A stretch of DNA of 64,000 nucleotides. It comes from Escherichia coli. Its GTDB lineage: Bacteria; Pseudomonadota; Gammaproteobacteria; Enterobacterales; Enterobacteriaceae. A program made the position numbers and the translations under genes. Below the pieces are notes generated by a model, which had not been told where the DNA came from, made no database searches, and saw only the letters and a program-made list of their open reading frames with translations. This document shows, in pieces, positions 19,833 through 20,198 of the stretch (the first letter of the stretch is position 1; every line of letters begins with the position of its first letter). Location: NCBI RefSeq assembly GCF_003018115.1, contig NZ_CP027457.1. One strand, given 5' to 3'.

Positions 19833-19965
19833 GGACGTAAAAAAACCGACTTTGCGTCGGTTTTTACTCTTCAGCCTGAGTTGGTGGCTCTGGCCGGAGT
19901 GAGAATGCCCACATCTAACGGTTCAATACTATTAGCCAGTGGCTAACATTGCAAGCGTTAGCGAT
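19833..19965 (-). repeat. agrB: Tandem repeat copy 1 (~232 bp period) containing an A-run/hairpin/T-run terminator-like structure; candidate agrB-type small RNA locus
   Basis: Direct repeat of 20065-20198 read from sequence; hairpin ccgactttgcgtcgg flanked by A7 and T5; the arsR-gor region is known to carry the agrA/agrB antisense RNAs of dinQ. Confidence 0.45.
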
Positions 19966-20064
19966 TTCTTCAGCTGGAGAAGGGACAGTTTGCTATACAT
20001 GTTGGTGAAAGAGGATTTATATACGTTCATCGGGTCGCTGCCGTACCAAGCCTTGTCCGAATCC

Positions 20065-20198
20065 GGACGTAAAAAAACCGACTTCGCGTCGGTTTTTTTA
20101 CTCTTCAGCCCAGAGTTGGTGGCTCTGGCTGGAGTGAGATAGCCATCATCTAACGCATCAATGCTAATACCATACTGAAACTATTGCAAGGACGTGCT
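20065..20198 (-). repeat. agrA: Tandem repeat copy 2; candidate agrA-type small RNA locus
   Basis: Near-identical to copy 1 over ~95 bp with a few substitutions, similar over ~135 bp; same hairpin ccgacttcgcgtcgg flanked by A7/T7. Confidence 0.45.

Follow-up and report, generated by a model that had tools for sequence, protein, structure and literature searches.

Predicted agrB and agrA antitoxin RNA genes orphaned beside an IS609-interrupted dinQ gene in Escherichia coli

In E. coli K-12, agrA and agrB are constitutively expressed small RNAs (sRNAs) transcribed divergently from the LexA-controlled gene dinQ (Weel-Sneve 2013, PMC3567139). Their 5′ 31 nucleotides are antisense to dinQ, at 25 of 31 positions for agrA and at 30 of 31 for agrB, and DinQ toxicity is countered by agrB only (PMC3567139). 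Northern blot and primer extension gave evidence of the agr transcripts in K-12 (AB1157; PMC3567139). The part of the processed +44 dinQ mRNA with which agrB pairs is G88-A119 (Kristiansen 2016, PMC5066626). This pairing sequesters 'sequence 2', upon which the Shine-Dalgarno hairpin (G184-G187) closes, and RNase III cuts the duplex (PMC5066626). agrA, which has 'a few mismatches', showed no effect in vitro (PMC5066626). Overall, the published experiments comprise northern blots, primer extension, in vitro translation and RNase III assays (PMC3567139; PMC5066626). As to gene order, agrA can sit between dinQ and agrB (T1TAdb paper, PMC8594479). The repeats described below correspond to these known type I antitoxin sRNA genes, for which the K-12 annotation, the Rfam family and the mechanism were already available.

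IstR-1/tisB resembles agr/dinQ in that a divergent, non-overlapping and constitutive sRNA lies beside a LexA-controlled toxin gene, and in that the toxin mRNA needs 5′ processing before translation (PMC3567139, PMC5066626). However, the two systems have no sequence relationship, and the agr gene is tandemly duplicated. The mode of action also differs: IstR-1 acts by blocking a ribosome standby site, AgrB by allowing the Shine-Dalgarno hairpin to close. In OhsC/shoB and Orz/zor, as in agr/dinQ, the antitoxin sRNA lies 5′ of the toxin mRNA, in divergent orientation, and pairing occurs via a short common repeat (PMC8594479). In contrast to agr/dinQ, OhsC/shoB and Orz/zor are not under LexA regulation, and their sequences and toxins are unrelated to it. 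The zor-orz system is likewise tandemly duplicated.

The mechanism of dinQ silencing is taken from the literature on K-12 agrB and carried to the present locus by orthology. At intact loci, the first 31 to 34 nucleotides or so of the cognate sRNA would pair with the processed +44 dinQ mRNA at G88-A119. The Shine-Dalgarno hairpin would then close and an RNase III substrate would form, so that DinQ would not be made.

Two agr copies between arsR and the dinQ LexA box

The window, that is the whole 64 kb stretch of E. coli DNA analysed here, had been predicted from its sequence to hold two direct-repeat copies at 19833-19965 and 20065-20198, about 232 bp apart and upstream of the dinQ LexA box. 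The copies are indeed found at this place. A direct-repeat search gave a repeat pair, 19823-19934 and 20055-20169, about 85% identical and 232 to 235 bp apart, made of three segments (Table 1). The spacing shifts from 232 to 234 and then to 235 bp because of small indels. Similarity between the copies reaches the -35 hexamers, which makes the outer limits 19965 and 20198 reasonable, and the LexA box lies just beyond the second repeat. Tandem Repeats Finder called no tandem repeat at the locus because indels split the repeat and a non-repeated spacer parts the two units. The repeats were therefore recovered by the direct-repeat search and by Rfam covariance models.

Table 1. Coordinates of the features of the arsR-gor region in the window
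Feature	Position	Strand	Description
arsR	19334-19687	-	flanking gene
Repeat segment	19823-19865 / 20055-20097		43 nt, 91%; direct-repeat search
Repeat segment	19861-19876 / 20095-20110		16 nt, 100%; direct-repeat search
Repeat segment	19875-19934 / 20110-20169		60 nt, 83%; direct-repeat search
agrB orthologue (arsR-proximal, 82 nt)	19837..19918	-	Rfam RF02891 AgrB, 79.5 bits, E 4.7e-13, model 1-84
agrB terminator hairpin	19839..19865		on plus strand: A7 19839-19845, CCGAC 19846-19850, loop TTTGC, GTCGG 19856-19860, T5 19861-19865; U7 follows on minus strand; read from sequence
agrB orthologue 5′ antisense segment	19885..19918	-	TTAGATGTGGGCATTCTCACTCCGGCCAGAGCCA, variable segment GTGGGCAT within
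agrB promoter	19926..19954	-	-10 TAGTAT 19926-19931, 17-nt spacer, -35 TTGCAA 19949-19954; read from sequence
gor-coding-like fragment, spacer between agr copies	19994..20046	-	about 80% identical to gor 22362-22414, blastn E about 5e-8
agrA orthologue (dinQ-proximal, 85 nt)	20069..20153	-	Rfam RF02891, 90.7 bits, E 1.6e-15, full model
agrA terminator hairpin	20072..20100		A7 20072-20078, CCGAC 20079-20083, loop TTCGC, GTCGG 20089-20093, T7 20094-20100; perfect 14-nt inverted repeat; read from sequence
agrA orthologue 5′ antisense segment	20120..20153	-	TTAGATGATGGCTATCTCACTCCAGCCAGAGCCA, variable segment GATGGCTA
agrA promoter	20161..20189	-	-10 TAGCAT 20161-20166, 17-nt spacer, -35 TTGCAA 20184-20189
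dinQ LexA operator	20217..20234	+	TACTGTATGATTATCCAG; overlaps dinQ -10 TATGAT 20222-20227; described in PMC3567139
dinQ leader kept, +1 to +35	20234..20268	+	K-12 alignment
IS609 (IS200/IS605 family, 1747 bp)	20269..22015	-	substitutes dinQ +36 to +200
IS609 tnpB	20312-21532	-	intact, 406 aa
IS609 tnpA, frameshifted	from 21519	+	RefSeq annotation on identical sequence
dinQ remnant	22016..22093	+	codon 3 to stop codon; without start codon or Shine-Dalgarno
Common dinQ/gor terminator hairpin	22110..22140		read from sequence
gor	22147-23499	-	flanking gene

The prediction also took the copies for agrA/agrB and expected minus-strand RNAs of about 85 nt. In agreement with this, both copies score above the gathering score of the Rfam AgrB family (40; covariance-model scan, full model of 84 positions), both matches are on the minus strand, and the gene lengths derived from Rfam and from the K-12 alignment are 82-85 nt. 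Two further matches, to Spy779816 (29.6 bits for a gathering score of 67) and to AgrB on the plus strand (26.8 bits), were set aside as sub-threshold echoes of the agr hairpin.

The genes arsR, arsB and gor were identified as flanking genes, with arsR and gor enclosing the agr copies and the LexA box. In K-12, agrA and agrB map to the arsR-gor intergenic region, not elsewhere, and the window is colinear with this region (92.8%). The RefSeq annotation of K-12 gives the order gor, dinQ, agrA (b4712), agrB (b4713), arsR, with agrA and agrB as ncRNAs. A four-way alignment with K-12 agrA and agrB supports the assignment of the copies by sequence, and the 5′ 34 nt of the dinQ-proximal copy match K-12 agrA b4712 at 33 positions. 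Because both the K-12 gene order and the alignment agree, the arsR-proximal copy (19833-19965) is assigned as the agrB orthologue and the LexA-box-proximal copy (20065-20198) as the agrA orthologue. We consider it very likely that these are agrB and agrA of a dinQ-agrAB type I toxin-antitoxin locus, with their own promoters and terminators, orphaned beside a dead toxin gene.

Judged from its sequence, each agr copy is equipped with its own predicted sigma-70 promoter and Rho-independent terminator, the hairpin of which is followed by U7 in both copies. The -10 hexamers end 7 nt ahead of the annotated 5′ end in both copies. The promoter hexamers and spacer length of the agrB orthologue are those of K-12, and the 45 nt upstream of the agrA start are identical to K-12 agrA. 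Among the 105 agr copies that we collected, the -35 region is invariant. Both predicted RNAs fold as a central stem-loop plus the terminator, with z-scores against shuffles of -3.96 (agrB) and -5.71 (agrA). A consensus promoter and terminator scanner called neither the agr promoters, which have 8 matches out of 12 for a threshold of 9, nor the terminators. In the latter case, the rule of the scanner seems to absorb the T-run into the A-T-extended stem, which appears to be a limit of the tool and not an absence of terminators.

When compared with K-12 AgrB and AgrA, the window genes have the same arsR-gor locus, strand relative to dinQ, gene order, length of 82-85 nt, promoter hexamers, central stem-loop and terminator. 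The agrB orthologue differs from K-12 agrB in its variable segment (GTGGGCAT versus AAGAACTC) and by CCGG instead of CCAG. The agrA copy differs by a terminator loop with TTC, not TTT, and by one additional A-T pair.

The hairpins deserve a closer reading. They had been written as ccgac(t/c)(t/c)gcgtcgg, a formula one base short, three bases being present between ccgac and gcgtcgg; the ttt/ttc difference between the copies was correctly noted. The further proposal that this loop difference underlies the functional difference between agrA and agrB fails because K-12 agrA and agrB have identical terminator hairpins, loops included. What is known to set the two apart in function is the antisense segment of 31 nt at the 5′ end, and not the terminator loop (PMC3567139, PMC5066626).

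With an A-run on one side and a T-run on the other, the hairpins may plausibly act as bidirectional terminators. One could go further and suppose that the repeats serve mainly to insulate the arsRBC operon and the SOS promoter from each other, or to terminate transcription in both directions between them, the sRNA transcripts being of little weight here. The A7 and T5-T7 tracts place a U-run after the hairpin on either strand, the plus-strand versions also fold stably (-12.9 and -19.5 kcal/mol, z-scores -3.7 and -6.3), and the elements are kept although the dinQ target is gone, as described below. However, the conserved unit is far larger than a terminator, since it includes the invariant -35 region, the -10, the transcription start and the 5′ antisense segment. 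The Rfam model is matched over its full length, and transcripts have been demonstrated in K-12 (PMC3567139). Retention of the elements may simply reflect a recent IS609 event, the allele being 100% identical in five genomes. Such a main role as terminators or insulators is unlikely.

Generic intergenic repeats (REP/BIME or MITE-like), or small plus-strand ORFs, were also considered in place of RNA genes. Two plus-strand ORFs do overlap the repeats, one of 37 aa (19789-19902) and one of 67 aa (19939-20142). However, the indels between the copies (232 to 234 to 235 bp) break any common reading frame and the Rfam match is on the opposite strand. As for a generic repeat, the hairpin and core patterns are confined to this locus within the window: the 25-nt hairpin pattern and the antisense-core pattern have exactly two instances each in 64 kb, where 0.00 (hairpin, 100 shuffles) and zero (core, shuffles) are expected. 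Moreover, when one genome per species was scanned for the exact pattern, the agr core turned up only in E. coli, E. albertii, E. whittamii and Escherichia sp. E1V33, and in one unclassified metagenome bin, and its position was that between arsR and gor wherever the flanks are known. Both variants are extremely improbable, and the copies are best read as agr genes.

A 53-nt stretch of the spacer that parts the agr copies resembles an internal part of the gor coding sequence (about 80% identity) and is oriented like gor; locus L003 has it in its spacer too. This fragment may be a relic of the duplication that gave the second agr copy.

Replacement of the dinQ target by IS609

Numbering of dinQ was set from GUG = G195 (PMC5066626) and from the K-12 alignment, which places +1 at window position 20234. 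The alignment with K-12 ends at 20268 and restarts at 22016. The 165 bp corresponding to dinQ +36 to +200, present in K-12 and in L003, are missing, and the 1747 bp of IS609 stand in their place. Gone with the missing 165 bp are the +44 processing site, the AgrB site, the Shine-Dalgarno sequence, the GUG start and codon 2. An intact DinQ ORF, that is 27 aa with a GUG start, the Shine-Dalgarno sequence G184-G187 and the LexA promoter, is thus absent. The dinQ promoter and the remnant ORF are parted by the element, straight after which the ORF resumes at codon 3. No in-frame start codon was found upstream of the remnant, after the preceding stop. RefSeq lists a 22-aa 'dinQ' CDS at this position in strain F9792, which has the identical allele; this CDS is a remnant, because it begins at codon 3 without an in-frame start codon. 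The LexA box and dinQ +1 to +35 are retained, and are now directed into IS609, antisense to tnpB. At the other end, the dinQ terminator has been placed just beyond the gor stop codon (PMC3567139).

Neither sRNA has a dinQ target in the window, because IS609 and the 165-bp deletion removed dinQ +36 to +200. In agreement with this, a search of the 64 kb window for sites complementary to the 5′ 34 nt of the two sRNAs gave none, the best non-self match being 20-21 out of 34, and complementarity of the 5′ 31 to 34 nt to dinQ G88-A119 is likewise missing from it. A third, dinQ-type repeat copy was sought in the window and not found; only the two antisense-core copies are there. agrA and agrB are the sRNA genes that ordinarily keep the SOS-induced membrane toxin DinQ in check. 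In this strain, agrAB cannot regulate DinQ, because the dinQ segment that they bind has been deleted, with IS609 in its place. In contrast to K-12, the target region, the Shine-Dalgarno sequence and the start codon of dinQ are gone, and the cognate toxin mRNA is absent. Both agr genes look fully functional, yet they have no dinQ target in the window; the locus is predicted to be an antitoxin module orphaned next to a defunct toxin gene.

The orphaned sRNAs might persist through regulation in trans of another target, such as a dinQ-like (dql) gene or an unrelated mRNA, and would then be more than relics. Both agr genes are undamaged despite the loss of dinQ +36 to +200, and strain GF4-3, which has the same IS609::dinQ junctions at 97.2% identity, keeps one agr copy. 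On the other hand, the window holds no complementary site, no other agr target is reported in PMC3567139, PMC5066626 or PMC8594479, and about 15% of complete E. coli genomes have dropped the agr and dinQ promoters together (see below), against an essential second role. A second target therefore seems very unlikely, and we keep to the reading of an antitoxin module that has lost its toxin mRNA.

We then considered the element itself. RefSeq annotation of the identical sequence gives TnpB and a frameshifted IS609 tnpA. Members of the IS200/IS605 family have tnpA (Y1 transposase) with tnpB and subterminal hairpins, lack terminal inverted repeats and insert 3′ of a short target without duplication; the element agrees with this description. 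The subterminal hairpin of IS609 is CCACGCCCTAAAGGACGTGG. Four IS609 copies in differing contexts have both ends in common, with TTAT(C) directly before the left end (minus strand). At dinQ, the left-end junction lies at TTATC, within codons 3-4 (GAT AAA), and looks like a normal, target-specific IS609 insertion. The right end abuts GCGCATTGCC, which in intact alleles is preceded by GTTTAT (minus strand). TTAT, the apparent IS609 target as judged from the four copies, adjoins both ends of the 165-bp deletion (minus strand; positions 20264-20268 and 22016-22020 of the window; L001 and L003 as intact alleles). Rather than a random deletion, this suggests either a TnpA-mediated deletion or a pair of insertions that then recombined with each other.

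The IS609::dinQ allele is present in 6 of 5426 complete genomes. Five RefSeq genomes have it at 100% identity, namely four strains of the ETEC series (O169:H41 by label in two) and one other isolate; the sixth genome is GF4-3. F6326-C1 (O169:H41) and its relative F9792 are among the carriers.

The 3′ end of the IS609 tnpB (window 20259-20439, minus strand) gave sub-threshold Rfam matches to RAGATH-18 (28.1 bits), HgcC (24 bits) and sot0042. With regard to the agr repeats, these matches were set aside because they are sub-threshold and fall in the tnpB 3′ end. This site is the expected place of the TnpB guide RNA (omega-RNA), the guide of which would now come from the dinQ leader and the LexA-box flank.

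The surroundings of the insertion are of uneven similarity. Relative to F9792, identity is only 96.3% along the arsR-arsB flank (18000-19687) but 99.8-100% along the intergenic region with IS609 (19688-22146). An unrelated metagenome contig (L047) shares 99.9% identity with the arsRB flank. Across strains, the arsR-gor intergenic region diverges by 4-10%. The locus looks mosaic.

Antisense specificity and survival of the locus among strains

In order to describe the locus beyond the window, a sample was assembled from 10 complete E. coli genomes, 59 metagenome contigs and 6 records of a one-genome-per-species collection. Within the antisense segment, a stretch of 8-9 nt between TTAGAT and TCTCACTCC is variable. 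At least eight alleles occur among loci L001-L079: AAGAACTC, AAGAGCTC, GATGGCTA, GATGACTA, GACGACTA, GTGGGCAT, AATGGCAT and GATGGCAT. Several of them are not confined to a single one of the three repeat sites (agrB position, agrA position and dinQ target). Such sharing is the pattern that would be expected from gene conversion.

Pairing of each sRNA with the local dinQ target was compared at 34 two-copy loci. Counted in Watson-Crick pairs, the agrA-position copy is the better one at 20 loci and the agrB-position copy at 13, with one tie. Counted in duplex energy, the figures are 18 and 13, with three loci within 1 kcal/mol. Complete and representative genomes alone give 5 for the agrA position, 2 for the agrB position and 1 tie. 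For K-12, the computed energies are -57.8 kcal/mol with agrB and -42.3 kcal/mol with agrA, consistent with the experiments. The strains 2017-02-2CC, EF7-18-58, AF14 and E69 show the reverse of K-12 with a similar margin. In EF7-18-58 and E69, the duplex predicted for the agrA-position copy has -53 to -58 kcal/mol, and that for the agrB-position copy -41 kcal/mol. The energy margins resemble the K-12 difference of 15 kcal/mol between agrB, which is functional, and agrA, which is inert. These comparisons lead us to propose, tentatively and at somewhat less than even confidence, that the K-12 rule (agrB as the antitoxin, agrA as a degenerate copy) is strain-specific and that the antitoxin role moves between the paralogues via segment exchange.

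As the variable segment of the window agrB orthologue is not that of K-12 agrB, its former dinQ target allele can only be inferred. With the dinQ target allele of contig L044, this sRNA would form 32 pairs out of 32 (computed energy -68.1 kcal/mol). The pre-insertion allele of the window lineage was sought among more than 70 loci, the best of which (L003) is only 96% identical. The same agr pair as in the window occurs with dinQ target GACGACTAT in L003 and with GTGGGCAAT in L025.

All but four of the 5426 complete E. coli genomes (5422) carry the locus. We sampled 39 evenly spaced chromosomal rows of the RefSeq ranking. Twenty-seven had a full-length locus, six had one agr copy and six carried a 199-bp deletion, which corresponds to about 15% of complete E. 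coli genomes (6/39 rows). This deletion (L007, NZ_CM142666.1, 381-600) fuses an agr repeat to the dinQ repeat and takes out an agr promoter, the LexA box and the dinQ promoter. Strains with the 199-bp deletion are also without arsR and arsB, and arsC adjoins instead. A single agr copy is found in the complete genomes YZ22MPE6, PU-1 and GF4-3 (L004 1273-1620; also L005 and L006). Single-copy metagenome loci were left out of the conclusions, as short-read assembly can collapse the near-identical core of about 70 nt.

Overall, dinQ-agrAB in the present strain is not a working toxin-antitoxin pair, since the sRNA binding site and the dinQ translation start are gone. Any 'dinQ' annotation on this allele is to be treated as a remnant. 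More generally, the survey suggests that the chromosomal dinQ-agrAB locus decays often, with two routes seen, one through IS609 and one through repeat-mediated deletion. The alleles suggest that the three repeats swap their antisense specificity segments. If the antitoxin role does shift between the two paralogues, the duplicated antitoxin would be a reservoir of specificities.
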